A DNA stretch of 32,000 bases from an uncultured candidate division Zixibacteria bacterium (lineage in GTDB: Bacteria > Zixibacteria > MSB-5A5 > UBA10806 > 4484-95), in the NCBI GenBank assembly GCA_963668625.2, contig CAXXKA010000008.1, forward strand, positions 1,007,747 to 1,039,746. The letters run 5' to 3'. Position numbers and translations under genes: made by a program. Positions 2,462 to 28,690 of this stretch are shown one piece after another (within the stretch, counting starts at the first letter, position 1; each line of letters opens with the position of its first letter). The notes under the pieces are model-generated. The model saw only the letters and a program-made list of their open reading frames with translations, had not been told where the DNA came from and made no database searches.

Positions 2462-2540
2462 GACCCGAACGCAGGCAGTAGGATAACGGCTCATCAGCCC
2501 TGTGGCTGGTGAGCCTGTCGATTCCGATTTAAGGAGAATT

Positions 2541-3779
2541 ATGAAATACTTAAAAATTGTTTTGTTGGTAATGCTCTTAACGGCGTTTAGCTATACGATT
2601 GTAACTGCCCAGACAGTCGAGTTTGTCGGCAGTTATGATACACCGTCAATCGCCCGTGGTATTACTGTTACTGATAATTACGCTTATATTGCCTCAGGCT
2701 CATCGGGTTTGCTGATAGTAGATGTCTCCGATCCTGAAAATCCAGTATTTACAGGAAACTATCAAACATCAGGTACTGCCAATGATGTCTGTATCTCGGG
2801 AGATTACGCATATATAGCCGCCGGTTTTTCAGGCCTTCAGATAGTTAATATTTCCAATCCGGGCAGTCCATCACTTGCCGGCAGTTACAGTACTCCCGAT
2901 CGTGCTTTAACTGTTCAGGTTATAGGTAACTACGCATATATAGCCGACAGGGCTTCATTCCAGATAATTGACATTTCCGATCCAGAAAATCCCGCCTTAG
3001 CCGGGAGTTGGAACAATTCAGCAAATGATCTTACAAGCGTTAATGTCAGCGGAGATTATGCTTATTTGACCAGGTTAACATATGGACTGATTCTGGTGAG
3101 TATAACCGATCCTGAAAACCCAGAATATGTAGGCGAGTACTACAATGGAAGTAACACCACCTATGACGTTCATGTCTCCGGCGATTACGCCTTTGTGGTT
3201 GATGGGTCATCACTGAAAATGATTAATACTTTTATCCCAAACGCTCCTACACTTTACGCGACGTGTTATGATTTGTCGATTGCGAAGAGTGTTTATGTTT
3301 CGGCCGGTTACGCTTATGTAGCCGACTTTGATTACGGGCTTCACGTGATATATAATCCTGATCCATTTCATCTTACATATATCACGGGTTATGAGACGAC
3401 CGAACATGTCTATGACGTTTTTGTTTTAAATGAATACATTTATATAACTGAGGGATCTTCTCTTTTGATTTTAAGATATTCTCAGGTTGATATTAATGAA
3501 GAATTCAACCTGCCACAGGAGTTTTCACTATCGGGTAATTATCCCAACCCTTTTAACTGTTCTACGGTCATATCATATGAGCTGAAACAACCCACAGCGA
3601 TCAGGCTTGATATCTATGATCTTTTAGGTCGCCGTATTGAGACGCTGGTTAATGAATACCAGCAAGCGGGCCAACACCGAATCACCTGGGATGCAACAGG
3701 TGTCAACTCCGGCGTTTATTTCTATAAAATGCAGACAAATGAATATACTGAAATGAATAAAATGATATTGTTGAAGTAA
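2541..3779 (+). CDS. LVIVD-repeat beta-propeller protein with signal peptide and T9SS C-terminal sorting domain
   Basis: ATG at 2541 follows AAGGAG (2531-2536). N-terminus MKYLKIVLLVMLLTAFSYTIVTA is signal-like. Units like YAYIA..GLLIVDVSDPENP recur about 7 times. The tail is NYPNPFNCSTVISYEL...GVYFYKMQTNEYTEMNKMILLK. The GTG extension to 2502 is unlikely. Confidence 0.85.
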   Translation: MKYLKIVLLVMLLTAFSYTIVTAQTVEFVGSYDTPSIARGITVTDNYAYIASGSSGLLIVDVSDPENPVFTGNYQTSGTANDVCISGDYAYIAAGFSGLQIVNISNPGSPSLAGSYSTPDRALTVQVIGNYAYIADRASFQIIDISDPENPALAGSWNNSANDLTSVNVSGDYAYLTRLTYGLILVSITDPENPEYVGEYYNGSNTTYDVHVSGDYAFVVDGSSLKMINTFIPNAPTLYATCYDLSIAKSVYVSAGYAYVADFDYGLHVIYNPDPFHLTYITGYETTEHVYDVFVLNEYIYITEGSSLLILRYSQVDINEEFNLPQEFSLSGNYPNPFNCSTVISYELKQPTAIRLDIYDLLGRRIETLVNEYQQAGQHRITWDATGVNSGVYFYKMQTNEYTEMNKMILLK

Positions 3780-3842: not shown

Positions 3843-5066
3843 ATGAAACCGGAACCGATCATAAAATTTCTTAAAGCTTTCGATTTAAATACTTACGAGG
3901 CTAAGTGCTATCTGGCGCTTTTAAAACGTGATAACTTGTCGGCTGCCGAAGTAGCTAAGTTATCCGGGGTCCCCAGGGCGCGGGTGTATGAGATTCTCGA
4001 CAATCTTATGGACAGAGGTTTTTGCCATTTGGTCGCGGGACAAGTGAAAAAATTCAGGGCGGCGAGTCCGCTGGTTTTTCGTGATCTGGTAGAACAGAAA
4101 CATGAAAAAACCAAAATTGAAATCGATCGACAAGAAGAATCGCTTAAATCCAATATTGTGGGTAGAAAACAGAAATTAAATTCCGCAATTGAGCAAAAAA
4201 AGCAAGAGTTCGCTTCTAAAGTAGAACAAGAGAGGCAGAAATACGACTCTGAAATAAAACGAAAAACAGAGGAATTCAACTCCGAGATGGAGCGAAAAAA
4301 GCAAGACTTCGACTCTGGAATCGAGCGAAAAATAAAGGAATTTAATTCGCGAATCGAGCGGGAAACCGAAAGGGTTGATGCCGTAATCATGCGGGAGAAA
4401 AAGAAATTCGATTCCGAAGCTGAAAAAGAAAAACGAGAAATCGAATCGCTAAAGAAAAATGTGGAAAATGTTGTCGAAACTTTCGTAGAGACTTATAAAA
4501 AAGGCCGTATGAACACCGCCCCTCTTGATTACATCGAAATCTTAAGAGAGCCTACGCAGATTTTTAATAAATTCATGCAGTTTGAAAAAAAGGCCCAGCA
4601 TGAAGTTTGCGCCTTTATAAGGACAAGTTACAGTAGTGCCAGACCTTCGCTGGAACTCGCGAAAAAATATGATAAGGCTGAAAAAGACCTGAGGTTTAAT
4701 TTGCTTAAAAAGGGTGTAAAGTACAGAGTTATATATGAAGCGCCAGGTTTAGATAAGTCTATTATAGATAAGTCCCAGCTTGACAAAGAAACGATTATTA
4801 AATTTTCCAAGTGTAATGATAAATTGGCCGAAGCCGGCGAGGAAGCTAAAACATTACCGGAATTGCCAATGGTTATGTCTATCTGGGATTCCAAAGCCTT
4901 TGTGGTCTTGCTCAACGATCCGGTTTCCGGGGAACCGACTCATACCTCGTTGTTCATTGAGCATCCGGCGATGGCGCAGAGCATGAAAATAGTATTCGAA
5001 GCGTTCTGGGCGAAGGCCGAAGACCGTCAAGTTTGGAAAGAACGCGAACATAAAAAATTGAAATAA
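3843..5066 (+). CDS. TrmB-family transcriptional regulator with an internal array of 11-residue repeats
   Basis: The N-terminal winged HTH (LNTYEAKCYLALLKRDNLSAAEVAKLSGVPRARVYEILDNLMDRGF) is typical of TrmB. Residues 116-203 are 8 tandem hendecads. A C-terminal globular domain follows. Confidence 0.75.
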   Translation: MKPEPIIKFLKAFDLNTYEAKCYLALLKRDNLSAAEVAKLSGVPRARVYEILDNLMDRGFCHLVAGQVKKFRAASPLVFRDLVEQKHEKTKIEIDRQEESLKSNIVGRKQKLNSAIEQKKQEFASKVEQERQKYDSEIKRKTEEFNSEMERKKQDFDSGIERKIKEFNSRIERETERVDAVIMREKKKFDSEAEKEKREIESLKKNVENVVETFVETYKKGRMNTAPLDYIEILREPTQIFNKFMQFEKKAQHEVCAFIRTSYSSARPSLELAKKYDKAEKDLRFNLLKKGVKYRVIYEAPGLDKSIIDKSQLDKETIIKFSKCNDKLAEAGEEAKTLPELPMVMSIWDSKAFVVLLNDPVSGEPTHTSLFIEHPAMAQSMKIVFEAFWAKAEDRQVWKEREHKKLK

Positions 5067-5111
5067 ATCAGTGGTAATAAATAAAGTCGCCGAGCGTAAA
5101 CGCCCGGCGAT

Positions 5112-5277
5112 AAGGACGATAACGACCTTTCTTGTCGAAAGGTGTAATCATCCCAATACTAAACAAAAGAAATCAGGTAAGCAAGGCAAATTTGGTAATT
5201 GAAAAAGAGAGGAGAGACAATCGCTGATTAATTATTAATCGCAAAAGGACGATAACGGCCTTTCTTGATGGAAAGGT
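5112..5277. repeat. Two copies of a ~32-nt hairpin repeat flanking a 15-bp perfect palindrome, upstream of the Cys-rich gene
   Basis: 5112-5143 is aaggacgataacgacctttcttgtcgaaaggt and 5245-5277 is aaggacgataacggcctttcttgatggaaaggt. Each has a CCTTTC...GAAAGG stem. GATTAAT-T-ATTAATC lies at 5226-5240. A 13-nt piece of the repeat (gtcgaaaggtgta) recurs near 7879-7892, downstream of the gene. Confidence 0.5.
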
Positions 5278-5392
5278 ACAAACGATAACGCTTCAAATCA
5301 GAAAAATCTAAAAATAGTCACGGCCCCGCAATTTTAAAAGCGGGGGGTGTGTAAATCTATCATTTAAGTTATTAGCGAATGGTGTTGGAAAT

Positions 5393-7717
5393 ATGAGAAA
5401 TACAAAAAAGCAATCCATGATTGGGTTAGTCCTGGTATTGATGTTCCTGGCTATTCCCAGTCTGACTTTTGCCGATGGCGCCTGCTGTACCTCTAGCGGA
5501 TGCGTGGAGGTTGCGGACGTTACGACCTGCTTAATGTCTAATGGAGTCTGGATTGGTGAGGGCACGAGTTGCTCGGACGATCCTCCACCCTGCAACGGTG
5601 CCTGCTGCACCGGTGAAGGATGCGTAGATAATCTTGATGTTACGACTTGTATGATGACTTACTCCGGCCTGTGGATGGGCCCGAATACATCATGCAGCGA
5701 TCCCGATATTTGCAGTGGCGCGTGCTGTATTGGTACGTCCTGCCAATTTATCACCGAAACAGAGTGTGCTAACCTTTCCGGAAGCTTCTCCGGTTTTGGC
5801 ATAACCTGTGATCCGAACCCATGTGTTCAGCCAACCGGCGCCTGTTGTACCCTGGAGGGGTGCGTAGCCGATGTTGATGCAATGACCTGCGCGGTGGTTT
5901 ACTCCGGCGTGTGGATGGGATCCGAGACATCATGCAGTGACCCTGACCTATGCTCAGGCGCTTGCTGTATAGCCGATACCTGCCAGGTTATGGATCCAGC
6001 CCTATGTAGTCAACTCAATGGAGATTTTGCGGGCTATGGTTCGGGCTGCTTCCCTGATCCCTGCGGCCCTACTGGTGCCTGTTGTCTGCAGACGCCAGTT
6101 GGCGCATTCTGCACGGATATGACCGAAGAACAATGTGTCTTGATGGGCGGTTCCGCTACTTATCACGGTGATGGTACCTTCTGCGATGGTATTGACGGTG
6201 ACGGTAATGGCGTGCCGGATCTCTGCGAAGATCTCGAAGGTGCTTGCTGTATTGGTGAAGATTCGTGCTTATTCGTTACCGATTCAGAATGCCAATTGGC
6301 CGGTGGCGAATTCAAAGGAATTGGTACTGACTGTTCGGATATGAACTCGAACGGTGTCGCCGACGTTTGCGAAAACAGTACGGAAGGCGGCGCTTGCTGT
6401 ACTTTCATGCAGGGTTGCGTGGATGTTGCCGATCAGGCGACTTGCGAAGGCGATCCTTATTTGGGTCAGTGGATGGGCGCCGGCACTAGTTGTTCGGACG
6501 ATCCTCCTCCTTGTAATGGCGCTTGCTGTACGGAAACCGGTTGTGTCGATAATGTCACTGCTATGACCTGTCTGTCAGCTCATGCCGGACAGTTCGTTGG
6601 TGCCGGCACTAGTTGTTCGGACGATCCTTCTCCATGTAACGGCGCCTGTTGTACGGATGAGGGATGCATTGATGGTATTGATGCTATGACTTGTATGACT
6701 ACATATTCAGGTCAATTTATGGGCGCGGGTACGTCATGTAGCGACCCGGGTATTTGCAGCGGTGCCTGCTGTACCGGTGAGACCTGTCAATTTGTTACCC
6801 AAACAGAATGTAGCAATTTGTCCGGAACCTTCTATGGTTATAACACGACCTGTGATCCGAATCCATGTATCCAGCCAAGCGGCGCTTGCTGCACTCCTGA
6901 GGGATGTATAGCGGATGTAAGCGGAATAACCTGTGCGACGGTTTACTCCGGCATGTGGATGGGACCAGGATCATCATGCAGCGACCCTAACCCTTGTGTG
7001 GGCGCTTGTTGTATAGATGATAGCTGTCAGGTATTGGATCCAGGTGAATGTAATCTCCTCGGTGGGGAATTCCTTAATTACGGCTCGGGCTGCGATTTTA
7101 ATCCCTGTGGCCCTACTGGAGCTTGTTGCACAGAGTTTCCCGTGATCACTATCTGCTCAGATATGACAGAAGAAGGATGCGCGGCGTTAGGTAGTGTCGC
7201 AACGTTCCATGGCGTTGGCACTTATTGTGATAATATTGACGGTAACTCAAACGGTATCCCGGATATCTGCGAGGATCTCGAAGGCGCTTGCTGTTACAGC
7301 GATGGTTCTTGCATGATGCAAACCGATGAGGATTGCCAACTGGACGGTGGCGAGTTCAAGGGGATTGGCACTGACTGTAGTACCCCGGATATTTGTCCAG
7401 CGCCTCCCGGTTTAGATTATCTCCCCGGTGATGCCAACATGGCTGCCGGCTCGTGGCCGCCGAACGTAATCGGCGCTGATGTCACCTACCTGGTGAACTA
7501 TTTCCGGGCTATTGCCGCGCCATGTTTACTGGATGGTTTCTATACCTCCGGCGATGCTAACGGTGACTGCTCGGTAATCGGCGCTGATGTCACTTACCTG
7601 GTACAATATTTCCGAGGCGCGAACGAATTACATTTCTGCCCGGACTATCAACCATCCTGGTCTGGCAGCGGCGATTTACCGACCGAGGCTCCCGATGGTT
7701 GGCCGAATTGCGAATGA
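5393..7717 (+). CDS. Secreted cysteine-rich repeat protein (15 GACC six-Cys modules) with C-terminal dockerin-like domain
   Basis: Signal peptide MRNTKKQSMIGLVLVLMFLAIPSLTFA. GACC modules start at residues 29, 69, 109, 149, 189, 228, 283, 333, 376, 417, 457, 497, 537, 576 and 631. The C-terminus carries GDAN..VIGADVTYLV(N/Q)YFR twice, which is dockerin type I-like. Confidence 0.85.
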   Translation: MRNTKKQSMIGLVLVLMFLAIPSLTFADGACCTSSGCVEVADVTTCLMSNGVWIGEGTSCSDDPPPCNGACCTGEGCVDNLDVTTCMMTYSGLWMGPNTSCSDPDICSGACCIGTSCQFITETECANLSGSFSGFGITCDPNPCVQPTGACCTLEGCVADVDAMTCAVVYSGVWMGSETSCSDPDLCSGACCIADTCQVMDPALCSQLNGDFAGYGSGCFPDPCGPTGACCLQTPVGAFCTDMTEEQCVLMGGSATYHGDGTFCDGIDGDGNGVPDLCEDLEGACCIGEDSCLFVTDSECQLAGGEFKGIGTDCSDMNSNGVADVCENSTEGGACCTFMQGCVDVADQATCEGDPYLGQWMGAGTSCSDDPPPCNGACCTETGCVDNVTAMTCLSAHAGQFVGAGTSCSDDPSPCNGACCTDEGCIDGIDAMTCMTTYSGQFMGAGTSCSDPGICSGACCTGETCQFVTQTECSNLSGTFYGYNTTCDPNPCIQPSGACCTPEGCIADVSGITCATVYSGMWMGPGSSCSDPNPCVGACCIDDSCQVLDPGECNLLGGEFLNYGSGCDFNPCGPTGACCTEFPVITICSDMTEEGCAALGSVATFHGVGTYCDNIDGNSNGIPDICEDLEGACCYSDGSCMMQTDEDCQLDGGEFKGIGTDCSTPDICPAPPGLDYLPGDANMAAGSWPPNVIGADVTYLVNYFRAIAAPCLLDGFYTSGDANGDCSVIGADVTYLVQYFRGANELHFCPDYQPSWSGSGDLPTEAPDGWPNCE

Positions 7718-7794
7718 ACTCTCTGATTTGAGTAATTAAACTCAGCTACTACTTCTTGAAAAGTGCTCTAACACTTTGACCTTGATCTACGATA

Positions 7795-7819
7795 GGCGGC
7801 CTTAACGGGCCGCCTTTTT
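7795..7819 (+). terminator. Rho-independent terminator after the Cys-rich gene
   Basis: GGCGGCC-ttaac-GGGCCGCC followed by TTTTT, about 80 nt after the stop at 7717. Confidence 0.8.
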
Positions 7820-7967
7820 CATGTCAACAATACGGTAACAACTGCGGTATATCTGTGGTAATCTCTGATGCTTTATGGTGTCGAAAGGTGTAGATCGGAT
7901 TTATTGCAATTCGCTATCAATCAACAGAGTAAGTTTAATACCAATAATTTAGCAAAATAGCATGAAT

Positions 7968-8016
7968 AGGAATCATAATCCTCGTGTCCGGGGTTTGAGT
8001 CCCTGCTCCGCTACTT
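7968..8016 (+). repeat. Orphan copy of the 3' half of the tRNA(CAT) gene (att-like direct repeat of 21842-21890)
   Basis: aggaatcataatcctcgtgtccggggtttgagtccctgctccgctactt matches 21842-21890 at 47/49. Both differences fall in the T-loop (ttcaag versus tttgag). No 5' half of a tRNA lies upstream. Confidence 0.8.
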
Positions 8017-16042: not shown

Positions 16043-17308
16043 CACTAGTGTCCGGGCTTTGAGGCTGGCTTGACAGACCTCCTATAATAAGGGTGTAAAC
16101 GCTAATTATAACACCTTTGTTTACAGGAGGTTAAAAATGCAAGGGAAGGTTACAATACTTCGCCAGATAACGCAAATGATTTCTCGATACGATTTCCAAA
16201 AAGCAGTTTCGACTGGCAAAGGGCGGCATTTCACGGTTTCTTTCGGCTACTGGTCGCACCTGGTGGCGATGATATTCGGGCAATTATCGGAGCAGCAATC
16301 GCTGCGTGATCTGGTCTTGAATCTTTCCCGTCAGGCGCATAGGTTTTACCATCTGGGTATGTCAAAGATACGCCGTTCGACTTTTTCGGATGCCAACAAT
16401 CATCGGCCCTCGGCAATATACGAGAACTTGTTTTACATATTATTGAATCGTTACGGTTGTCATTTTCAAGGCAAAAACCGGAAGCTGGGGAATAAATTAT
16501 ACTCAGTTGATTCGACGGTCATAGATTTGTGTCTGGGGTTATTTTATTGGGCTAAATTCAGAACGACCAAGGCCGGTGTCAAGCTTCATGTCAGGTTAAA
16601 CCATGATGGTTACATCCCTGATTTTGCGGTTGTCACCAATGCCAATATTCATGATTCCAGAGTCAGGAAGATGTTCAATTTACCGGCTGGCAGTATCGTG
16701 ACTTTCGACAAAGGCTACAATGACTACAGTCTTTTCAAGTTATTAAATGATAAGGGGATAATCTTTGTCACGCGGCAGAAGAATAACGCTAAATACAAAG
16801 TAATCAAACGGTGTAGAACTAATCGTAAGCAAGGAGTCACCTCCGATCATTGGATTGAATTTACCGGTTTTTACTCCAAGCAAAAATGTTCGATTAGGCT
16901 GAGACGAATCCGTTATATCGATAAAGAAACCGGTAAAGTTTATGTATTCCTGACCAATGATTTCAAACATGCCGCCTCGACTATTGCCGACATTTATAAG
17001 CAGCGCTGGCAGATAGAATTGTTTTTTAAAGCGTTAAAACAGAACCTTGTGATCAAGACTTTCTGGGGTACCTCCAAGAACGCAGTATATTCCCAGATCT
17101 GGGTGGCTTTGATAATCTATTTGTTAATGAGCGCGCTGAAATACAAATACAAAATATCGGCCTCAGTTGGAAAGTTAATTCAGAGAATCCGGTCATTCGT
17201 GTTTGAAAAAGATGATGTCCTGAGATTCCTTAAAGACCAAATACCAATCCCAATACAAATCGCTCAAACATCTCAAATTAACCTGTCCCTAAAGGCCGGA
17301 CACTAGTG
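16043..17308 (+). mobile_element. IS4-family insertion sequence (1266 bp) with 22-bp terminal inverted repeats and a 9-bp target site duplication
   Basis: Left end CACTAGTGTCCGGGCTTTGAGG, right end (reverse complement) CACTAGTGTCCGGCCTTTAGGG, 19/22 identical. The direct repeat ATTTAGTTT lies at 16034-16042 and 17309-17317. Confidence 0.92.
16137..17306 (+). CDS. IS4-family DDE transposase
   Basis: 389 aa with a DDE_Tnp_1-like core (VDSTVIDL..., FDKGYNDY...) and the IS4 Y-x2-R-x3-E-x6-K signature (YKQRWQIELFFKALKQ). The ORF ends inside the right IR. Confidence 0.9.
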   Translation: MQGKVTILRQITQMISRYDFQKAVSTGKGRHFTVSFGYWSHLVAMIFGQLSEQQSLRDLVLNLSRQAHRFYHLGMSKIRRSTFSDANNHRPSAIYENLFYILLNRYGCHFQGKNRKLGNKLYSVDSTVIDLCLGLFYWAKFRTTKAGVKLHVRLNHDGYIPDFAVVTNANIHDSRVRKMFNLPAGSIVTFDKGYNDYSLFKLLNDKGIIFVTRQKNNAKYKVIKRCRTNRKQGVTSDHWIEFTGFYSKQKCSIRLRRIRYIDKETGKVYVFLTNDFKHAASTIADIYKQRWQIELFFKALKQNLVIKTFWGTSKNAVYSQIWVALIIYLLMSALKYKYKISASVGKLIQRIRSFVFEKDDVLRFLKDQIPIPIQIAQTSQINLSLKAGH

Positions 17309-20190: not shown

Positions 20191-21654
20191 TTACTTTATC
20201 AGTATCATGCGACGGGTATTAGTATAATCGCGACTTGTCATCCTGTAGAAATACGAACCGGATGCAACCGGTTTACCCGATTGTGCCCGACCATTCCAAT
20301 CGAACGCGTAATGTCCCGGCAATTTATACTCATCCAATACCGTTTTTACGAGTTGTCCCCGGATATTAAATATCCGTATCAGCACCGGCCCGGCTTTCGA
20401 AACATTATAAGATATTTTTGTAGAACCATTGAACGGATTAGGATAATTTGCCTCGAGGGAGGTGGCAACAGGCAAAGAATTTCCCGTAACACCTACATCA
20501 TTTAATATATCATCCAAAGCGGTTATGAAACTCTCCATCTCGGTCATGGTACCGGTGGATACCCTGATATGATTCTGCAGTCCCCAGCCGGTTCGCACAC
20601 TCACGCCTCGTTGGTTGAGTAAATTGGCCAATTGAGCCGAATCGAATTCGGTTTCAAGTAAAAAGAAATTAGTTTGCGAGGGCACATATCTCATCTCGTT
20701 CTGATCGAAATAATCGAAACAGTAGGCTTTGGCCTCGTTATTTAGCGTAACCGTATTATCTATATGTTCCTGATCCTCGAGCGCGGCGATAGCTGCAGCT
20801 TGCGACAGCCTCGTAATCGAGGCGTATATCAGCCACGATTGCATCTGCGAGATCAACTCTTGCCTTCCGATAGCATAACCGATACGCAATCCTGCCAGAC
20901 CGTATACTTTTGAAAACGTTCTTATAACGATGACTTTCCGATCATCCTGAACTAACCGTATTGCGGTCTCATACGAGGGATCATCCACGTACTCGTGATA
21001 CGCCTCATCGATAATGGCAACGACCTGCGAGGGCAAGTTATCGACAAAATCCTCGATATCATCGGCGGAAAGTACCCTGCCGGTCGGATTGTTGGGATTA
21101 GTAATAATCACCGCCTGGGTAGAGCTATCCACTCGGGAGGCCATATCATCCAGATCGATATCGTAATTACCATCGAGATAAGAATAATGGATATCAGCGC
21201 CTATCAAATCGGCATCCGAGGGGAACTGGCTGTATGAGGGATAGGGTGAAACTATATTATTGCCGCCGGTAATAAAAGACAGAGCCGCCAGGCGCAGGAT
21301 TTCGGTGGCGCCACAACCGGCTATCACCTGGCCAGAGTTAACATCATGACTATTGGCCAGATAGTTTTTAAGCCCGCCGGCATACCAGTCGGGGTAGCGA
21401 TGGCTCATATCGATATTGTCGGAAATCGCTTGCATCGCCAGCGGAGATGGCCCCAGCGAGTTCTCGTTATAACAGAGCCTGTTAACATAATCGGTTAATA
21501 CCGGGAAATCATCCCGTCCGGTGTGATTCTCGGAAAAAATCGGCGCGGTATTAAATAGCGAAAAGGCGGCGCTTCCAGCAACCAGCCCTAAAAACTTACG
21601 CCTCGATAACTCTTCCCTGATATTACCGGTGGTGTGTTTCTTATCCATATACAC
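20191..21654 (-). CDS. HisC-like class I/II PLP aminotransferase with N-terminal twin-arginine (Tat) signal and C-terminal T9SS sorting domain
   Basis: SRRKFLGLVAGSAAFSLF fits the Tat consensus. The aminotransferase core has ITNPNNPTG, IIDEAYHEY and RTFSKVYGLAGLRIGYAIG (PLP lysine motif). The last 88 aa (20194-20457) are NYPNPFNGSTKISYNV...GSYFYRMTSRDYTNTRRMILIK. Confidence 0.85.
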   Translation of the reverse strand: MYMDKKHTTGNIREELSRRKFLGLVAGSAAFSLFNTAPIFSENHTGRDDFPVLTDYVNRLCYNENSLGPSPLAMQAISDNIDMSHRYPDWYAGGLKNYLANSHDVNSGQVIAGCGATEILRLAALSFITGGNNIVSPYPSYSQFPSDADLIGADIHYSYLDGNYDIDLDDMASRVDSSTQAVIITNPNNPTGRVLSADDIEDFVDNLPSQVVAIIDEAYHEYVDDPSYETAIRLVQDDRKVIVIRTFSKVYGLAGLRIGYAIGRQELISQMQSWLIYASITRLSQAAAIAALEDQEHIDNTVTLNNEAKAYCFDYFDQNEMRYVPSQTNFFLLETEFDSAQLANLLNQRGVSVRTGWGLQNHIRVSTGTMTEMESFITALDDILNDVGVTGNSLPVATSLEANYPNPFNGSTKISYNVSKAGPVLIRIFNIRGQLVKTVLDEYKLPGHYAFDWNGRAQSGKPVASGSYFYRMTSRDYTNTRRMILIK

Positions 21655-21813: not shown

Positions 21814-21887
21814 GGCGGAGTAGCTCAGTCGGTTAGAGCAGAGGAATCATAATCCTCGTGTCCGGGGTTCAAGTCCCTGCTCCGCTA
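21814..21887 (+). tRNA. tRNA with CAT anticodon (elongator Met, or Ile2 if lysidine-modified); integration target
   Basis: Cloverleaf: GGCGGAG TA GCTC AGTCGGTTA GAGC A GAGGA ATCATAA TCCTC GTGTC CGGGG TTCAAGT CCCTG CTCCGCT A. It is 74 nt with no encoded CCA. The anticodon stem lacks the three G-C pairs of initiator tRNA. Confidence 0.93.
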
Positions 21888-21986
21888 CTTTTTATCTTGC
21901 TGAACGACAATATGTTATAGGCCTCCTTCTTCAGGTTGGATTTATCACTTTTTATCCCACGGTAACATAGCGGTAACAAAATAGCT

Positions 21987-22017
21987 AAAAAAAGACCGCC
22001 CAAATACAAGGGCGGTC
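21987..22017 (-). terminator. Rho-independent terminator downstream of int (minus strand)
   Basis: The minus strand reads GACCGCCC-ttgtattt-GGGCGGTC followed by TTTTTTT. It begins about 27 nt after the int stop codon. Confidence 0.75.
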
Positions 22018-22043
22018 AACTTAATACTATATCGGCTACTGTA

Positions 22044-23099
22044 CTAATACGGGAGTTTACTTAGCATTTCGTCTTTGTGATCAGGTGCCAAATGTGAGTA
22101 TATCATTGTCGTCTCAATCTGGGCATGTCCAAGAAGCTTTTGCAACGTGAATATTGGCACATTAACCATTGCCAAATGGCTGGCAAACGTATGCCTGAAT
22201 GTATGGCATGTAGCCCACGGCAGGCCTATCGAAGTGAGAGTCTTTGATATGAATCTGCCTACCCACCATTCTCGCCACTGCGGTTGCTCCTTGCCATGGC
22301 TATCAAATGGCCCAAACACTTTACCATCGCTTCTTCGCTTCATCGATTTCAACATGTCCCGAAGTCCCGGTGAGTACTTGAATGGTAGTATACGATTACG
22401 TTTACCCTTGGCATTGATCCCTCTTATGACAAGCTGGTTTCTTTTAAAATCGATATCGTCCCAGGTTAACGAAAGCGCTTCACCTAACCGTGTTCCAGTA
22501 CCCAGATAGAAATCAACTAACTCCGCAAAGGATGTATCCTTAAATTTATCCTTCACCCTGCTGATCTCTTCCAAGCTCAGGTATCGTGGGTACTCTGACT
22601 GCGGCACTCTAATGTACCGGATTTTATCTAACGGGTTTTTATCCAGCATCTCCCATCGGACAGCTGTATTAAATGCAACTTTCAGATGACGGAATTCGAG
22701 GTTTACGGTTGATGGCGCAATTCCATTATCTAATCTGTGTTTCCGATAGTTCTCCATCGTCAAAGGCCGTATCGAACGGATTTCCTTATTACCAACAAAT
22801 TCAAGCAAATGCTGAAGTATTCTACGTTCACGTATTACCGTACGTGGTGCCTTCACCTGATTTGAATGATCCAAATACTCATCGATAAACTGACTCAACT
22901 TTATAACCTCATCATTCGACTCAATTGGTTTTCCCTCAGCCAATAGAGAGCAAACTTGATGAAAGACTTTATCAGCGGTACGTTTATCACAATTGCCGAT
23001 TTTAAAGGTTTTCTGCACACCATTCTCCCAATAAAAGATCCGCCAACAGTGCTTACCAGATTTATACTTCCGCTTAACCAGAGAAGGCACCTCAATCAC
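22044..23099 (-). CDS. int: Tyrosine site-specific recombinase (phage-type integrase)
   Basis: Catalytic signature: GTGTRLGEAL (Arg), HTFRHTFASHL (H-x-x-R), LLGHAQIETTMIYSHL (His and Tyr). It lies next to a tRNA gene. Confidence 0.93.
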   Translation of the reverse strand: MIEVPSLVKRKYKSGKHCWRIFYWENGVQKTFKIGNCDKRTADKVFHQVCSLLAEGKPIESNDEVIKLSQFIDEYLDHSNQVKAPRTVIRERRILQHLLEFVGNKEIRSIRPLTMENYRKHRLDNGIAPSTVNLEFRHLKVAFNTAVRWEMLDKNPLDKIRYIRVPQSEYPRYLSLEEISRVKDKFKDTSFAELVDFYLGTGTRLGEALSLTWDDIDFKRNQLVIRGINAKGKRNRILPFKYSPGLRDMLKSMKRRSDGKVFGPFDSHGKEQPQWREWWVGRFISKTLTSIGLPWATCHTFRHTFASHLAMVNVPIFTLQKLLGHAQIETTMIYSHLAPDHKDEMLSKLPY

Positions 23100-23322
23100 C
23101 TCCTTTCGATCTCATAGGATAGCTTACAGTTATTTTCTCTTCGCATGATTTTACGTATTCAGTAACCTGGCCCCAGGTAAACTGAACAGAGTTACGGCTA
23201 AAGCGTGTACACGCGATCTTGCCTGATTTGACCCAGCGCAGCACTGTATTACGATGTACGCTGAGAGCCTCGGCTACCTCGTTTACCGTTTTAGTCAATT
23301 TGCCATCGGGCCAGGTGTTCAT
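23092..23322 (-). CDS. xis: Excisionase/AlpA-like HTH DNA-binding protein
   Basis: VNEVAEALSVHRNTVLRWVKSGKIACTRF fits an HTH_17-type motif. It is 76 aa and its stop overlaps the int start by 8 nt. Confidence 0.8.
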   Translation of the reverse strand: MNTWPDGKLTKTVNEVAEALSVHRNTVLRWVKSGKIACTRFSRNSVQFTWGQVTEYVKSCEEKITVSYPMRSKGGD

Positions 23323-23389
23323 TTTTCTTATACCTAAAAAATTACCTCCCGGTCATCATGGTAAATGACTGGGAGGATTTATAAAACGC

Positions 23390-23869
23390 CTATCCTTTTA
23401 AGCGATTGTCCTCATCGGAATCGTGGTTATCTTCATCGTCTGACACAATTTGATTTGCCCGAAATAGAAATTCATGGGCTTTAGCTACATGATCAGCGAG
23501 ATTTCTATACCCCGAAATGGCAATATCAAACATTCGCTTTAATTCTGCTGGCTGATTTTCCCCGCTTTGGGATAGTACAACACCAAGATGATTTATGAAT
23601 TCATGCCGAGTGTCAAAAAAGCCAGTCGCAACACTTACATAATCATAAGCATCGCTTGGAGAATCACTATTATTGGCTTTGTCCTTTAATCCGCCTAGGA
23701 ATTCTCCTATATCATAGTCGTATTTGGGGAAATCGATGAACTGCACTCCTTCAACAACTATCAGCGCATCTGCTCTCTTGATCGAATCCAGTACATGATT
23801 ATAGCAATCATTGCAGATATCTGGATTACAGAAGTAGTCGCGAACTAAAATTAAATTATCTGTATTCAT
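23390..23869 (-). CDS. Hypothetical acidic protein (159 aa), island cargo
   Basis: Long ORF in the same orientation as its neighbours, with no recognisable family. It is very D/E-rich with an acidic tail (SDDEDNHDSDEDN). Residues 31-50 resemble residues 38-57 of the 176-aa protein. Confidence 0.6.
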   Translation of the reverse strand: MNTDNLILVRDYFCNPDICNDCYNHVLDSIKRADALIVVEGVQFIDFPKYDYDIGEFLGGLKDKANNSDSPSDAYDYVSVATGFFDTRHEFINHLGVVLSQSGENQPAELKRMFDIAISGYRNLADHVAKAHEFLFRANQIVSDDEDNHDSDEDNRLKG

Positions 23870-23961
23870 TTAAAATACCTTTCCTGGTTTGTTTTCCTGC
23901 GCCAGCTAGAAAGATGGCACAGGTAGGTTAATACTAATGCTGTTAGTTTCTAGGCGACCCT

Positions 23962-24921
23962 TTACATTCCATCGTCAGCCATTATGATGATAGCGTCCAG
24001 GGTATAGCTATAAATCGCGCGGAAGCAATCAATGGCATTTCCCCATAATCTTTCAAAATATTCGTCGCTCAAACTATCATCATTAAGAAATTGATATTCT
24101 ACTATATACAGCAGTAGCATTGTCCAGATAGAGAGGTACCGGAATGATAAGAAGGTATAATCTCCTAAGGTTTTTTTTGAACGAAGTACACCGGCCCTCA
24201 AGCGAAGATGTTCCAGATCGTTCAAAACATACGTTAGGAACCCGAGAGAAAGCACCCACTTATTACCTTTAGCCTCGATAATAATATCCTGTTCAACCAT
24301 GGCTTGATACCGCTGCTTTACTTCCGGACCACCCTGTAAAAGCCCGTTGAATGCATCCAGCGGAATTGCTAAGGCAGGAGGGTCATCATCTTCAAGAAAC
24401 TTCTTTTTATCGAAGTCCTCTCCCGGTGGAATCTTTAAAATTAATTCCATTTCCTCAAGCACAACATCTTTCGTCCCTGGGGCGTTAATCCCAAACGCTA
24501 TTTCCAGCGCATTTAGAAGGTGTTTGAAAATATTATGGAAGTAAGGCAGATGGGCTTTTAATAGAAGTCGATTTGCCTCAACTGCATCTTCGGTGTCAGC
24601 CGTAGTGTTAGAAAAGTCGAATGATGTCAGATAGTTAAACCAAGAACGCAGATAGCTTAGAGATGTTTTGGCATAACAAACCCTATCTTCGTATGTAGGC
24701 TCAGCGTCATTAGAGGTATACCTATCCAGTTCATTCTCAACATACTCCCCTAATTTGGGGGCCGAGACGAATTCTTCCGAGCCAACCTCAAATATCAGGC
24801 CATTTTCAATTAATGCCTGGCGGAGGTCATTTAAATCGGCATTTTTCCAGCCGAGCTTTTCAGTAAATAGTCTCAAGGCTGCCGGAAATTCGTTTGTATT
24901 AGAGTTATTCATGTTTATCAC
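23962..24921 (-). CDS. Hypothetical protein (319 aa), island cargo
   Basis: Long ORF with no recognisable motif. It has a hydrophobic stretch near the C-terminus (FLSFRYLSIWTMLLLYIVEY). The start could be 24921 or 24912. Confidence 0.6.
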   Translation of the reverse strand: MINMNNSNTNEFPAALRLFTEKLGWKNADLNDLRQALIENGLIFEVGSEEFVSAPKLGEYVENELDRYTSNDAEPTYEDRVCYAKTSLSYLRSWFNYLTSFDFSNTTADTEDAVEANRLLLKAHLPYFHNIFKHLLNALEIAFGINAPGTKDVVLEEMELILKIPPGEDFDKKKFLEDDDPPALAIPLDAFNGLLQGGPEVKQRYQAMVEQDIIIEAKGNKWVLSLGFLTYVLNDLEHLRLRAGVLRSKKTLGDYTFLSFRYLSIWTMLLLYIVEYQFLNDDSLSDEYFERLWGNAIDCFRAIYSYTLDAIIIMADDGM

Positions 24922-24977
24922 TTTATTGTTTTGCCCGCAGCCGGATAGAACGGCGATGCGGGCGGGTTAACATTTTG

Positions 24978-25508
24978 CTAATCTTCAGACTCTGTGTCTG
25001 AATCAGCGTTGTCTACACCGGCTTTTATGCCGAGCTCTTTCAGCCGTTTCTCGACTTTTTCCAATGTTATTTTGTTTGAATCAATCATTACAGGCAGATT
25101 ATCCTGACGCTCTTTGAGTTTCCTTTTCTTCTCAGGATCAGGTTCAGTCGCTATTATTTCAGGAAGATTCTGAAGCTCAGATTCATGTTCAGCATTTAGG
25201 CGTGTCAGTCGAGTAAACTGGCCACGAAGAATGCCTGGATTGTCAGTGGTTTCTATAGTGGTACGGGATGACGGATTAGCTTTTTCGGCTTGGCGTTTAT
25301 CTTTATCGATTTTCTGGAGTTCCTTGTTTTTCTCTAGGAATTCAGGGACATCGATATAGAAAACACCACCGACATTAATTAGGGAATCACATCTTCGAGC
25401 CTGGCGAGTCAGCTTCTTAAGATCAGCGCCAATCATTTCGGCATAGGCTGAGAGAAGCATATTGTCGCCAAAAACTAATCCGATATTTAATTTGCTATCG
25501 TTTGACAT
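24978..25508 (-). CDS. Hypothetical protein (176 aa) with N-terminal excisionase-like wHTH, charged coiled region and acidic tail
   Basis: SAYAEMIGADLKKLTRQARRCDSLINVGGVFYIDVPEFLEK follows the same helix-turn-helix plus wing pattern as the two HTH_17 proteins in this window. The tail is DNADSDTESED. GGAGGAAAAG lies upstream of the ATG. Confidence 0.6.
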   Translation of the reverse strand: MSNDSKLNIGLVFGDNMLLSAYAEMIGADLKKLTRQARRCDSLINVGGVFYIDVPEFLEKNKELQKIDKDKRQAEKANPSSRTTIETTDNPGILRGQFTRLTRLNAEHESELQNLPEIIATEPDPEKKRKLKERQDNLPVMIDSNKITLEKVEKRLKELGIKAGVDNADSDTESED

Positions 25509-25866
25509 TTCTTTTCCTCCTTTCCTACCGTTGATAAAATCAACCGCAATTTTAAAAACGGATTATTTATGTTAGCGATTTTAAACGATCGATTGATGCC
25601 AGTTAGCATTGGCTCGTTTTTGGTAGTTATTAAGATTTTGCCCAATTAAACACAGCGTATTGGGTTCGCTATAATAGTAGGTTGTATGCAACCCTTATGA
25701 ATAAAAAACTGTTTAATTGGTGTGAATATATTTGCTATCTTTATTTAATTCATTGAGTTATAGGTGTCAAATGATTGAGGAATATTGCGGCGAGAAATAA
25801 AAATATCCGAAAATTACCTTAAGGTTGCGTAACCCAAGATAGCTTCAAATTTAGATATAGATTTTT

Positions 25867-26535
25867 TTATATTTCTCTAATTGTTATTTGAAATTTGGGA
25901 ATATAATATCCATGGTCCGACCACTTGTAAAATGGGTCTTCAGTGATTTCAAAGCAATTTTTAAGGACTCCTCTTATTTTTGAAATATTGGATTTAAGAG
26001 TCCCCCGCTTCATTGCATTTTGTATTTTCCTTGCTTTTTTTTCATCAGCAGTAAACATTAAAGTTGCCCACCATTTTCCTATTTTTTCCCCTTTTCCTTT
26101 ACGGAATCCTAATTTAGAGTAATGGACTTTTTTAGTTTTACTACCTGCAATAATACATACCCTTTCATAATTCGAATCAACAATAAATTTTACATTTTGC
26201 CATTTTGATACGTGCGGGAATTTAAGAAATTTTTCTTTTTGCTTTGAAGTTTTAAGTGATAATTTTTCTATATTTCTTGAAATACTTTCGATAATTTCAG
26301 ATTTATCCGAATCAGACAATCTGGTATAAGTTGGGAAGGAATCTTTATTCCATAAGTGATTTACAGAATATTCTAATTGCTGTTTAGATGGAGGATGAAT
26401 ATTTATACCGGCTATTATTCGATTTTTTATTTTTTTTAATATACCCACATTTTCTTGCGCAGCATAGCGTATTGGAACATCTGCTAAATGAAAATGTACA
26501 ACGTTTTTCTTGAAGGAAATTAAATACAAAGGCAA
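25867..26535 (-). CDS. Hypothetical basic protein (222 aa) in AT-rich cargo; 5' end uncertain
   Basis: Long ORF in visibly AT-rich DNA. Its only upstream start is TTG at 26535, and the frame stays open up to the IS3 junction at 26604. No family recognised. Confidence 0.5.
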   Translation of the reverse strand: MPLYLISFKKNVVHFHLADVPIRYAAQENVGILKKIKNRIIAGINIHPPSKQQLEYSVNHLWNKDSFPTYTRLSDSDKSEIIESISRNIEKLSLKTSKQKEKFLKFPHVSKWQNVKFIVDSNYERVCIIAGSKTKKVHYSKLGFRKGKGEKIGKWWATLMFTADEKKARKIQNAMKRGTLKSNISKIRGVLKNCFEITEDPFYKWSDHGYYIPKFQITIREI

Positions 26536-26619
26536 TAATTCATCGGATGTTTTATTTTGTATCGAAGATTTATATGCATCCTCTGTTAGCTTCCCCCCAT
26601 TGTTTGGACAGTAATTTAG

Positions 26620-27498
26620 CTAAAATAAGGTGGAATTTCTAAGTATTAGTCCATTATTTTTCTGTTTAATCGATTCCTTTTTTGAATTTAAATTATAAAC
26701 CTCATAAGGCGTCTTGCCGTTTAAGGCCTGATGGAAACGTTCGGTGTTGTAGAATTCGAAATACCTCTTCAAACCGAGGTAAGCCTCCGCCGGCGTCTGG
26801 TAATCGTGAAGATAAACCTCCTCGTACTTGACCGATCTCCACAGACGCTCGACAAAAATATTGTCAAGATACCGACCGCGACCGTCCATGCTGATAGCGA
26901 TCCGCTTGTCTTGCAGTACACCGGTGAAATCCTTGTCGGTAAACTGTGTTCCCTGATCGCTGTTGAATATCTCCGGCTGTTTGCCATCCAACGATTCCTC
27001 CAATGCCTCCACGCAGAAAGAGCTCTCAAGAGTATTGGACAAACGCCAGGCAAGAACGTAACGCGAGAACCAATCAATCACTGCCGCCAGATAGAGAAAG
27101 CCCCGGCTAAGACGAATATACGTGATATCGGCGCTCCAGACCTGGTCAACATGATCAATCAGGACATCGCGTAAAAGATACGGATATATCTTGTTAGACG
27201 GACAAGGCTTGCTCGTATTTGGTTTAGGGTAAACAGCTTGAAGACCCATAATCCTCATCAGACGTTCAACCCGCTTGTGATTTATATCATATCCCTGAGA
27301 CTTTAGACAGAGTGTCATCTTAGGACTGCCGTAAAACGGGGTCCTGGTATATTGATCGTCAAGCAGACGCATAAGTGTCAGGTTCAAATCGCTTTCCCCA
27401 GTAGGCCGGTAGTAGTAGCTTGAACGGGGAAGCCCCAAAAGCTGGCACTGACGGCTAATTGAAATGTCCGGGTTTGATCGTTCCACCAGATTCCTCAA
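26620..27498 (-). CDS. IS3-family transposase OrfB (rve/DDE integrase core)
   Basis: WSADITYI...NSDQGTQFT...ERLWRSVKYEEVY is typical of IS3 DDE cores. The frame is open upstream to the A-run (TAA AAA AAA GGA...). Confidence 0.9.
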   Translation of the reverse strand: MRNLVERSNPDISISRQCQLLGLPRSSYYYRPTGESDLNLTLMRLLDDQYTRTPFYGSPKMTLCLKSQGYDINHKRVERLMRIMGLQAVYPKPNTSKPCPSNKIYPYLLRDVLIDHVDQVWSADITYIRLSRGFLYLAAVIDWFSRYVLAWRLSNTLESSFCVEALEESLDGKQPEIFNSDQGTQFTDKDFTGVLQDKRIAISMDGRGRYLDNIFVERLWRSVKYEEVYLHDYQTPAEAYLGLKRYFEFYNTERFHQALNGKTPYEVYNLNSKKESIKQKNNGLILRNSTLF

Positions 27499-27502
27499 AT
27501 CC

Positions 27503-27787
27503 TCAGGCGAGACGCCCGCTCCTTTTTTTTAGAAATGCCAACTCCACCTGAAGCTTACCAATCTCCTGATAGAGAGCATCCATCCTGGCTTGCTCATCCT
27601 CCCGCAACTTGGCCTTGCCGTTAGAAAAGGCTTCCGGGAGAGACTGTAAAGCCTGCTTCTTCCACATACCAACCTGATTAGGGTGTACTTCGTATTCCGA
27701 GGCTATCTGATTAACGGTCTTCTGACCGCGAATGGCCTCTATGGCTACTTTTGCTTTAAGCTCCCCGCTGTATCGACTTCGCTTCAT
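27503..27787 (-). CDS. IS3-family transposase OrfA (HTH, leucine-zipper region)
   Basis: MKRSRYSGELKAKVAIEAIRGQKTVNQIASEYEVHPNQVGMWKKQ is a Transposase_8-like HTH. ATG at 27787. Confidence 0.9.
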   Translation of the reverse strand: MKRSRYSGELKAKVAIEAIRGQKTVNQIASEYEVHPNQVGMWKKQALQSLPEAFSNGKAKLREDEQARMDALYQEIGKLQVELAFLKKRSGRLA

Positions 27788-27812
27788 CAATTACCCTTTC
27801 TGGACATTTCTA

Positions 27813-28205
27813 CTAATTTAATACCACCTTAAACAATTGTCCAGTTTTTGGGGGAAACCTCACTGCTTCAGGCCATTTACATAGAAAACCTAATAAAGTA
27901 GCACGAAAAATATTTTTAAGAGCACTGTCATGGCAAGTTATTATTGCTTGATACAAATTAAAATAGATATTCCCTCTATCAATTTTCGCTATATACTTGC
28001 TATAATAGATAGGTAGGGAGTATTTAGTTATTGGAGGGGAAAGAATAATATCAAATAAATTATCTAAATCATCATTAAAATATCCGCGGTACAGCTTAGT
28101 CATATTAAAGTTGGTACATATATTATTTACAGGCTTAATTAATTCCATTCTTCTTTTTTCAGCCCATTTTTCAATATTAAATTCATTTTGCTTATCATTT
28201 TTCAT
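27813..28205 (-). CDS. Hypothetical protein (130 aa) in AT-rich cargo; last 10 codons come from the IS3 end
   Basis: The ORF crosses the IS junction at 27843/27844. Removing the IS gives the native end ...AVRFPPKTMGGS*. No family recognised. Confidence 0.5.
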   Translation of the reverse strand: MKNDKQNEFNIEKWAEKRRMELIKPVNNICTNFNMTKLYRGYFNDDLDNLFDIILSPPITKYSLPIYYSKYIAKIDRGNIYFNLYQAIITCHDSALKNIFRATLLGFLCKWPEAVRFPPKTGQLFKVVLN

Positions 28206-28690
28206 ACAAACCTAACCTTTTATATATTTAAACAGTAACAATAATATCTTAAAATAATATTTCAAAGAATAATATTGTTAGTTAACCACCTGAGACATTT
28301 AGTCTTTGATTTTAATGATCCGTTATTACATTCTTGGAAAGTCAAGATTTTTAAGAAACAGTAAGGCGGATAGGGATGGATATGGTATTGCATTTTATAT
28401 AACTAATTGTCTTTCAGGCGATTGCCAGGCAGTACTTTGGCTCCTATATTTAATCTCACCATCTTCCAACGACTTACGAGATCGCACAAACTGCTTTTAG
28501 ATACCCTGAAATATTTTAAGCCTCTGTGAAGGCAAATTTCGAATTGATGAAAATACACGCTAAAGAACGAAAAAAAATATCGGGCCCATATTTACGACTG
28601 GCGATGCAAACACGTCAGCTTCAACAACTTCTAATGGGTTTGTTAAGTATTTAACCTACTGAAAATAAATAAGTTATGGTATTTTTTTGC

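Follow-up and report, generated by a model that had tools for sequence, protein, structure and literature searches.

Tandem six-cysteine GACC modules form a large family of bacterial extracellular domains and resemble part of the iRhom homology domain

We analysed a 32,000-nucleotide (nt) stretch of DNA (hereafter the window) from an uncultured candidate division Zixibacteria bacterium (contig CAXXKA010000008.1 of assembly GCA_963668625.2, positions 1,007,747 to 1,039,746), and focused on a gene at positions 5393..7717 of its forward strand that encodes a secreted protein of 774 amino acids (aa). The protein is made of fifteen tandem modules that each start with the residues GACC and contain six cysteines, followed by a dockerin-like tail. 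We found that this GACC module represents a large bacterial extracellular domain family outside the curated domain libraries, which comprises ~9,700 clusters (50% identity) and occurs in as many as 38 copies in one protein. The module also provides a lead on the iRhom homology domain (IRHD) of the metazoan inactive rhomboids iRhom1 and iRhom2, a domain reported without structural or sequence relatives. We tentatively interpret the protein as a stalk or scaffold that would be docked by its tail at the cell surface or in a larger assembly.

A secreted protein composed of fifteen GACC modules

The features of the protein up to the end of the module array are as follows.

5393..7717, + strand: complete open reading frame (ORF) with ATG start, 774 aa plus stop, encoding a signal peptide, 15 GACC modules and a dockerin-like tail (translation and hidden Markov model, HMM)
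5393..5473, + strand: Sec-type signal peptide, aa 1-27 (read from the translation, no predictor run)
5477..6388, + strand: super-repeat copy 1, modules 1-7 of flavours A A B A B C D, aa 29-332 (module positions and identities)
6074..6388, + strand: long modules 6 and 7, in which acidic loops of DxDxDG type (CDGIDGDGNGVPDLC, CSDMNSNGVADVC) are inserted after Cys5 and before Cys6, putative Ca2+ sites at motif level only
6389..6517, + strand: module 8, flavour A, aa 333-375, which is additional to the two 7-module units and separates them (70% identity to module 1)
6518..7411, + strand: super-repeat copy 2, modules 9-15 of flavours A A B A B C D, aa 376-673, 348 aa from copy 1 (module identities)
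7118..7282, + strand: long module 14 with a DxNxNG loop (CDNIDGNSNGIPDIC; motif)

An initial annotation of the window, made from the sequence alone, had described an exported 774-aa protein with about 12% cysteine at these coordinates, and our recomputed values match. The ORF product contains 94 cysteines (12.1%), 13.4% Gly and 8.9% Asp, and the mature protein is extremely acidic, with 103 Asp and Glu residues against 4 Lys and Arg residues and a net charge near -99. The Sec signal peptide is visible in the translation as a basic n-region (MRNTKKQS), a 16-residue hydrophobic core (MIGLVLVLMFLAIPSL) and a cleavage site between TFA and D, and the annotated export is supported. The protein carries no catalytic domain. 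It was rejected as a lipoprotein because the cleavage site has no Cys, and as a sortase substrate because there is no LPXTG motif with a hydrophobic anchor. The C-terminal domain of the type IX secretion system (T9SS; PF18962/TIGR04183) was not matched in the GACC protein in Pfam or NCBIfam, where neighbouring proteins score 28-40 bits, and a T9SS tail was rejected on these grounds.

The residues GACC occur at aa 29, 69, 109, 149, 189, 228, 283, 333, 376, 417, 457, 497, 537, 576 and 631, and each of the fifteen modules, ~40-55 aa in length, contains exactly six cysteines, just as had been annotated. The family HMM, built from 1268 modules, matched the ORF product with 307 bits (E 3e-95) and 15 domains, a score by which chance repetition is rejected. 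In the short modules the cysteines are spaced CC-x4-5-C-x7-8-C-x13-15-C-x4-6-C, consistent with the spacing that had been given for all modules, but long modules 6, 7 and 14 fall outside it, with CC-x8 and C5-x11-13-C6. A near-invariant Gly and an aromatic residue (G.W/F/Y.G) lie in the middle of every module.

Pairwise identities between the modules revealed four flavours instead of the three originally distinguished. Flavour A comprises modules 1, 2, 4, 8, 9, 10 and 12, flavour B modules 3, 5, 11 and 13, flavour C modules 6 and 14, and flavour D modules 7 and 15, so that their order along the protein is AABABCD-A-AABABCD. When the protein is compared to itself at an offset of 348 aa, 44% of all residues are identical, and every other offset yields at most 20%. 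Residues 69-283 and 417-631, from which this offset had been deduced, share 142 of 215 residues (66%), and their DNA is identical at 540 of 792 positions (68%). Tandem Repeats Finder detected none of the module repeats at the DNA level, as a duplication with 68% identity is too old for it. The segments 6481-6534 and 6604-6657 had been taken as a trace of the same 8-module duplication in the DNA. They are indeed identical at 49 of 54 nt, but they lie 123 nt (41 aa) apart and correspond to the junctions of modules 8/9 and 9/10. The pair thus records a separate and younger duplication of one module and is no trace of the 8-module one.

GACC modules form a large family in bacteria

The whole protein matched 0 families at E<=10 in Pfam-A 2025 and NCBIfam r20, and it had no match among the PDB sequences. 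In the same two libraries, single modules and a block of six modules yielded nothing beyond noise (HpuA at E 0.17, DUF433 at E 0.059), and the isolated tail had no usable match either. The view that the module belongs to no named family is thereby borne out for the curated libraries. The module is not rare, and the family of thousands to which it belongs had been missed by the initial annotation. A word-indexed search retrieved 889 homologs of the GACC protein, and the named members among them are proteins from metagenome-assembled genomes (MAGs) of Candidatus Eisenbacteria, Phycisphaerae and other Planctomycetota. An exhaustive HMMER scan with a 41-position module profile identified 9,659 cluster representatives (clusters at 50% identity) at E<=1e-3, and 1,429 at E<=1e-30. 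These come mainly from Eisenbacteria, Planctomycetota and Zixibacteria, and reach 38 modules per protein and a protein length of 4,145 aa. The protein described here ranks ~90 of 9,659 (356 bits, 15 stretches). It displays the traits of the family, namely tandem ~41-aa modules with the spacing CC-x4-8-C-x7-8-C-x10-15-C-x4-6-C, a central Gly and usually GA before the CC. As the family is outside the curated libraries, annotation at present leaves out most of the length of thousands of secreted 'hypothetical' proteins in Eisenbacteria, Planctomycetota and Zixibacteria.

Module length, spacing and architecture in the family were determined from the 120 best homologs, which contain 1,546 modules. 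The modal module is 41 aa long with the spacing CC-x5-C-x7-C-x13-C-x4-C, exactly six cysteines are found in 1,344 of ~1,444 regular modules, and GA precedes the CC in 1,245 cases. The family consensus is ACClpDGtCevlTeadCaaaGGtylGdGTtCdPNPC, and mean identity between modules outside the Cys, Gly and Pro-Asn-Pro positions is ~33%. In most of the 120 homologs no precomputed Pfam domain covers the array, which is flanked by a median of 215 aa on the N-terminal and 112 aa on the C-terminal side. Fusion partners include S8, M43, reprolysin-like and C1 peptidases, multicopper oxidases, lamin-tail, PEGA and FlgD_ig domains, T9SS tails and PF00404 dockerins. Homologs P0043, P0088, P0089 and P0106 combine GACC arrays with metalloproteases of the reprolysin-like (ADAM-type) and M43 kinds. 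The ADAM-type fusions are curious, as the only PDB relative of the module, the iRhom homology domain, is the binding platform of ADAM17.

A paralog, P0002, is encoded on the same 1.4-Mb contig outside the window. This 734-aa protein is 39% identical to the GACC protein and has a different, more recently amplified array. In it, a 4-module unit is present in three near-identical copies, with loops that are rich in Asn (IHIDNNNNNINDLCED) or in acidic residues (DDPEDEDDIAEVC). The near identity of the unit copies points to recent tandem amplification. Like many surface proteins, the GACC genes evolve fast.

We found no earlier description of the GACC module, its likely kinship with the IRHD or the Zixibacterial tail repertoire in the literature searched, and all three appear to be undescribed. 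Tandem disulfide-rich spacers and dockerin-like tags are already known kinds of feature. A recently named repeat, 'CysRRep' (bioRxiv 10.64898/2026.06.07.730663), was rejected as the GACC module on account of its spacing, Cx6-9Cx5-7Cx8-11Cx7-8CC.

The GACC module resembles part of the iRhom homology domain

The IRHD has been described as resembling no other domain (PMC6451368; PMC11248996), and its structure, with eight disulfides, has been called 'unprecedented', as no similar structure was found in the PDB or in the human AlphaFold set (PMC11248996; also PMC10148629). We searched all PDB sequences at E<=10 with a profile of 115 diverse modules. Its sole matches were iRhom2 (8snl_B, residues 571-608, E 0.03) and iRhom1 (9xy4_A, residues 201-238, E 0.1). 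The alignments cover the whole module and place six of six cysteines in register, a resemblance that the initial annotation had overlooked. A second profile, made from 148 randomly sampled modules of modal spacing and built without reference to iRhom, matched the same four chains only (E 0.024-0.083), so that E values over both profiles range from 0.024 to 0.13. Further upstream in the same IRHD, the first profile gave a weaker, split match, which suggests that the IRHD may hold two GACC-like modules.

Several further comparisons agree with this match. The HMM of 1,268 modules scored 27.7 bits against the iRhom2 segment, whereas shuffles of that segment with the cysteines held fixed scored 5.6 +/- 3.6 bits and 0 of 2000 reached the observed value. 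The iRhom1 segment scored 23.8 bits, which 1 of 2000 such shuffles reached. The resulting z-scores are 5.4-6.2, in a test that was post hoc on the best match. As Cys-fixed shuffles score far lower, ~20 bits of the similarity come from residues other than Cys. HHalign gave the match between the GACC module and iRhom a probability of 74.6% (P 2.6e-5). When a model of modules 2-5 was compared by Foldseek with 350,542 PDB chains, the only hits at E<=10 were 9xy4_A (E 0.51) and 8snl_B (E 1.6), which are individually non-significant.

We consider homology between the GACC module and part of the IRHD probable, though unproven. To the fuller proposition, that the GACC module and the cysteine-rich core of the IRHD are truly homologous and that the IRHD itself is built from two GACC-like six-cysteine units, we would give an even chance. 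If it is true, the 'unprecedented' IRHD would gain its first relatives, in a family of ~10,000 bacterial clusters that are often fused to secreted proteases including ADAM-type ones. The origin of the IRHD, by ancient common ancestry or by transfer from bacteria to eukaryotes, and a generic function in protease docking would then be open to direct testing. The question matters because iRhom regulates ADAM17/TNF shedding and has medical importance, and no part of it is better conserved, or less well understood, than the IRHD.

Predicted fold, probable disulfides and acidic loops

An AlphaFold2 model of modules 2-5 (aa 69-227), based on an alignment of 67 four-module windows, was compact and confident, with a mean predicted local distance difference test score (pLDDT) of 94.1 and a predicted template modelling score (pTM) of 0.67. 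In the model, each module consists of a beta-hairpin, a short helix and a beta-strand (E-E-H-E repeated). In iRhom, all 16 of the 16 IRHD cysteines are paired in disulfides (PMC11248996; PMC10148629), and the probable homology favours reading the GACC cysteines, which align with them, as disulfides and not as metal ligands. With this alignment and the compact model, the disulfide scaffold proposed from the sequence is plausible, and three disulfides most likely staple each module.

The motif D-x-[DN]-x-[DN]-G-x-x-D is found between Cys5 and Cys6 in modules 6, 7 and 14 only. Among the 120 homologs, such acidic loops are restricted to this protein and its paralog P0002. The DxDxDG Ca2+-loop pattern is used by thrombospondin type 3 repeats and by dockerins, and from their motif the loops of modules 6, 7 and 14 probably bind Ca2+. 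The likeness to thrombospondin type 3 repeats that had been noted for these loops extends to the DxDxDG-type motif, but neither module 6 nor module 7 has a Pfam match to TSP_3 (PF02412) and the full D-x-D-x-D-G-x-x-D-x-x-D-x-C repeat is not present.

A dockerin-like tail shared by many exported proteins

The array is followed by a tail with the following features.

7412..7714, + strand: conserved tail domain, aa 674-774, divergent and dockerin-like, with 4 conserved Cys, 89% identical to the P0002 tail
7427..7510, + strand: tail segment 1 GDANMAAGSWPPNVIGADVTYLVNYFRA, a loop with a 5-residue insertion, then a helix (tail alignment and AlphaFold2)
7550..7618, + strand: tail segment 2 GDANGDCSVIGADVTYLVQYFRG, a canonical 12-residue D-x-N-x-D...D loop, then a helix (tail alignment, profile and AlphaFold2)
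7619..7714, + strand: C-terminal extension ANELHFCPDYQPSWSGSGDLPTEAPDGWPNCE, 32 aa, conserved in the tail family and outside the dockerin alignments found (tail alignment)

The tail has 34 close relatives, which occur on varied cargo, and its consensus is YLPGDANMxNGxWPPxVIGxDVTYLVNYFRGxxxPCLLxGFxxSADANGDCxVIGSDVTRLVNYFRGxxxIxxCPDYxPxWxTPxDLPxxAPxGWPNCE. In segment 2 (DANGDCSVIGAD followed by VTYLVQYFRG), the residues fit the 12-residue dockerin Ca2+ loop (D1, N/D3, D5, D12) and its helix exactly, and in segment 1 the loop has 17 residues with NG.WPP inserted. These segments correspond to the two dockerin-like repeats that had been annotated at the C-terminus, and the tail is a divergent relative of dockerins. 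PF00404 (Dockerin_1) was the sole recurrent Pfam family among 26 related tails, nine of which matched it below threshold (E 0.004-10, best 0.0038). Two of 52 full-length tail proteins also matched it, with E down to 1.9e-7 and the position of the match unverified. In the PDB, a tail profile matched mostly cellulosomal dockerins (E 0.03-1.7), with 4fl4_A first (E 0.029), then 6kge, 6kg9, 6kgc, 2y3n and 8ajy.

A scan of the tail over one genome per species gave 168 confirmed stretches, and 72 loci were kept. A single Candidatus Zixiibacteriota MAG (Gpa_9, JAAEQD01) accounts for 64 of the 72. In Gpa_9, the tails close proteins that have a signal peptide and range in length from 94 to >2,100 aa, with cargo domains that include CarboxypepD_reg, SdrD_B, beta-helix, DUF7948/SBBP, NosD, FG-GAP, arylsulfotransferase, LVIVD, S8, M28 and PPAD. 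Elsewhere, and also in this window, proteins of the same classes have T9SS tails. Only two of these dockerin-tailed proteins contain GACC modules. By this distribution, the tail is a modular C-terminal tag used throughout the lineage, with a dockerin-like sequence. As a single Zixibacteria genome has it on >60 exported enzymes, this uncultured phylum, which uses T9SS too, may possess a surface-display or cellulosome-like system that has gone unrecognised. A literature search for Zixibacteria and dockerins found no papers. The tails fall into length classes: 39 of the 72 end 1-2 residues after WPNC, and 23 carry an extension of 15-17 aa. Many of these extensions contain a loose [KR]-[IV]-[IV]-P-x-[GDS]-x-x-K motif, a possible signal for processing or attachment.

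Possible functions of the GACC protein

We tentatively favour, at just short of an even chance, the reading that the exported protein serves as a stalk or scaffold, stapled by disulfides and able to bind Ca2+, that consists of spacer modules only and is docked by its dockerin-like tail at the cell surface or in a larger assembly. An extremely acidic protein would be exported through Sec with the array as its entire cargo, and its fifteen strung modules would form an extended, protease-resistant stalk or scaffold in which the DxDxDG-type loops of three modules would bind Ca2+. The tail, serving as a general C-terminal tag on exported proteins in this lineage, would dock the protein in a Ca2+-dependent manner onto a receptor at the cell surface or on a scaffold. 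As the arrays of homologs from other phyla have an enzyme or binding domain on their N-terminal side and a sorting domain on their C-terminal side, the general role of the array may be that of a rigid spacer or an interaction platform.

Several observations weigh against this reading. The protein's own tail matches no Pfam model even at E<=10 and does not reach the PF00404 gathering threshold, the point on which the annotated dockerin falls short. The AlphaFold2 model of module 15 and the tail is poor (pLDDT 53), with two helices at the expected places predicted at low confidence, and no cohesin or other receptor is encoded in the 32-kb window. Loss of paired cysteines, as a clue to disulfide pairing, is limited by too few degenerate modules, with a single CCxCxC case. 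The gene context in the window gives no pointer to function. Lastly, the Gly-aromatic position conserved in every module fits a role in ligand binding equally well.

This last point leads to a rather improbable alternative, in which the protein is a polyvalent adhesin, similar to an array of carbohydrate-binding modules. Each module would be a disulfide-rich binding unit whose Gly-aromatic-x-Gly surface faces a polymer (polysaccharide, mineral or host surface), with avidity gained from fifteen copies and the tail tethering the array to the cell. Family copy numbers of up to 38 suit avidity, fusion of GACC arrays to degradative enzymes parallels that of carbohydrate-binding modules, and the extreme negative charge could bind cations or mineral surfaces. 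However, no known binding module is similar in Pfam, NCBIfam or the PDB, no ligand can be deduced, and the ~33% identity of modules outside the Cys, Gly and Pro-Asn-Pro positions looks structural more than ligand-binding. By analogy with the IRHD, which buttresses and restrains ADAM17, the arrays might instead act on secreted proteases by binding and positioning them, or by inhibiting them. They would do so in cis where they are fused to the protease, and in trans in the present protein. The IRHD of iRhom1 and iRhom2, the module's only PDB relatives, contacts the prodomain and the ancillary domains of ADAM17 (PMC11248996), and homologs are fused to reprolysin-like (ADAM-type), M43, S8 and C1 peptidases. 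We regard this as decidedly unlikely, given that the iRhom homology is itself borderline (E 0.02-0.08), that peptidase domains occur in a minority of homologs and most have no recognised partner, that no protease gene adjoins the GACC gene, and that the analogy comes from one eukaryotic system.

Sequestration of metals is the least probable function and in our view highly improbable: 94 Cys thiolates, in the manner of a metallothionein, would together with carboxylates buffer or detoxify metals outside the cell. The 12% Cys, the vicinal CC pairs and the net charge near -99 would suit it, and metal binding had been named as an option in the initial annotation. Against it stand the invariable six-Cys pattern and the compact beta/alpha fold predicted with confidence, both typical of disulfide-rich domains, the disulfide bonding of all the aligned iRhom cysteines (PMC11248996), the export of the protein, and the lack of resemblance in Pfam to metallothionein or Fe-S motifs. 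The tail, too, may be read differently, as a lineage-specific export or sorting signal and not as a cohesin-binding dockerin. Machinery for secretion or attachment in the outer membrane would recognise the signal and might remove it or process it covalently, and in function the signal would parallel the T9SS domain of the neighbouring genes. Its constant position at the extreme C-terminus of >60 cargo proteins of classes that are T9SS-tailed elsewhere (LVIVD, S8, PPAD), the strongly conserved extension ending in GWPNCE, the two discrete length classes and the lack of a cohesin in the window argue for such a signal. It is nonetheless unlikely, as the tail has detectable similarity mainly to dockerins, its poor model has two helices and not the T9SS beta-sandwich, and it contains neither a hydrophobic anchor nor a known sorting motif. 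Cellulosome producers have 70-200 dockerin proteins, and the copy number of the tail therefore fails to separate the dockerin and sorting-signal readings.

Genomic neighbourhood

The features around the gene are as follows.

56-2461, upstream: T9SS-tailed secreted protein
2502-3779, upstream: T9SS-tailed secreted protein with LVIVD repeats
3843-5066, + strand, upstream: TrmB-like regulator
5112..5267, + strand: 5' region with two copies (5112-5134 and 5245-5267) of a 23-nt direct repeat AAGGACGATAACGNCCTTTCTTG, a candidate regulatory element (0 expected by chance)
7794..7815, + strand: intrinsic-terminator-like hairpin of 9 bp (7 GC) followed by a T-run, 77 nt past the stop (consensus scan only)

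The T9SS tails of the two neighbours and the TrmB-like gene directly upstream, all of them named in the initial annotation, were recovered by the domain search. Between its N-terminal helix-turn-helix (HTH) and its C-terminal domain, the TrmB-like regulator contains ~150 aa of Lys/Glu-rich repeats (…KKQEFxSxxERK…) that are probably a coiled coil. A GC-rich hairpin lies 3' of its gene at 5087-5110. As this hairpin and the terminator-like one enclose the ORF, the GACC gene looks monocistronic, and with a hairpin between the two genes their co-regulation is not implied. The copies of the 23-nt repeat are 133 nt apart, and are found only in the 5' intergenic region of the GACC gene. After each copy, a GAAAGG allows a small hairpin to form. 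Directly upstream of the start codon, at 5324-5347, lies a palindrome CCCCGCAATTTTAAAAGCGGGG. The repeats and the palindrome could serve the TrmB-like regulator as an operator, or they could be a regulatory RNA. Downstream are genes for an HTH_17 protein, tRNA-Asp, a polysaccharide flippase, SIS, PcrB and alanyl-tRNA synthetase (AlaRS), and the window contains no second GACC gene and no second tail gene. Every named close relative of this AlaRS (58-72% identity) comes from Candidatus Zixiibacteriota.

The GC content of the GACC gene is 0.48-0.52, compared to ~0.40 in the flanking genes (window positions 5001-8000 against the flanks). The nearest homologs of the array are in other phyla (34-40% identity), and a related Zixibacteria MAG is almost without GACC arrays. 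This could reflect lateral acquisition, or simply the codon composition of Gly, Cys, Ala and Asp.

Further genes of note lie in other parts of the window. The product of 20191-21654 (- strand) joins a class I/II aminotransferase (PF00155, E 5e-49) to a C-terminal T9SS domain (Por_Secre_tail/FlgD_ig); a pyridoxal phosphate enzyme is an unusual cargo for secretion. An IS4-like DDE transposase (DDE_Tnp_1 and DUF4372; 16137-17306, + strand) lies between a 381-aa ORF without Pfam match and a UvrD helicase. The region 21814-31667 looks like an integrative mobile element at a tRNA gene. In it, tRNA-Met (21814-21888) adjoins a tyrosine integrase (22044-23099, - strand), followed by four ORFs without Pfam match, and it also contains an IS3-type rve transposase (26620-27498, - strand) and a D5-like primase/helicase (29160-31667, + strand), with GC content down to 0.32-0.39.

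Comparison with known systems

EGF-like domains, furin-like domains and the Myxococcus cysteine-rich repeat TIGR02232 are, like the GACC module, ~40-aa six-cysteine modules that form long tandem arrays in secreted multidomain proteins. They differ from it in the vicinal CC start and the spacing, and show no sequence or fold match to it in Pfam, NCBIfam or the PDB. The acidic loops resemble thrombospondin type 3 repeats in that the pattern D-x-D/N-x-N-G-x-x-D-x-C fits the DxDxDG Ca2+ pattern, with a Cys after it, but in the GACC protein they are insertions within a different module.

The tail shares with type I dockerins (PF00404) the two tandem loop-helix segments, the second with a D-x-N-x-D-x-x-V-x-x-x-D loop and helix, and the C-terminal position on a wide variety of secreted enzymes within a single genome. 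Unlike them, it scores below threshold and has an insertion in segment 1, four conserved cysteines and a 32-aa extension ending in GWPNCE, and its host is a Zixibacterium with T9SS cargo and no cellulosome producer. With the T9SS sorting domain (PF18962/TIGR04183) it shares the role of a C-terminal tag on the same classes of secreted cargo; that domain is a beta-sandwich, whereas the poor model of the tail has two helices.

The closest parallel to the GACC module itself is the IRHD. The six-Cys frameworks correspond, with CC-x6-C-x7-C-x13-C-x4-C in iRhom and a modal CC-x5-C-x7-C-x13-C-x4-C in GACC, and both have a G before Cys3, a T after Cys3, a central G-aromatic pair and T-x before Cys5. 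Both the IRHD and the GACC array are extracellular or luminal. The IRHD differs in being a loop of ~230-240 aa, with 16 Cys and extra loops, between transmembrane helices TM1 and TM2 of a eukaryotic membrane pseudoprotease. Unlike that luminal loop of a seven-TM rhomboid-like protein, the GACC protein has no hydrophobic stretch past the signal peptide in its translation and no rhomboid domain in Pfam, and it presents its modules as a tandem array in a soluble bacterial protein.

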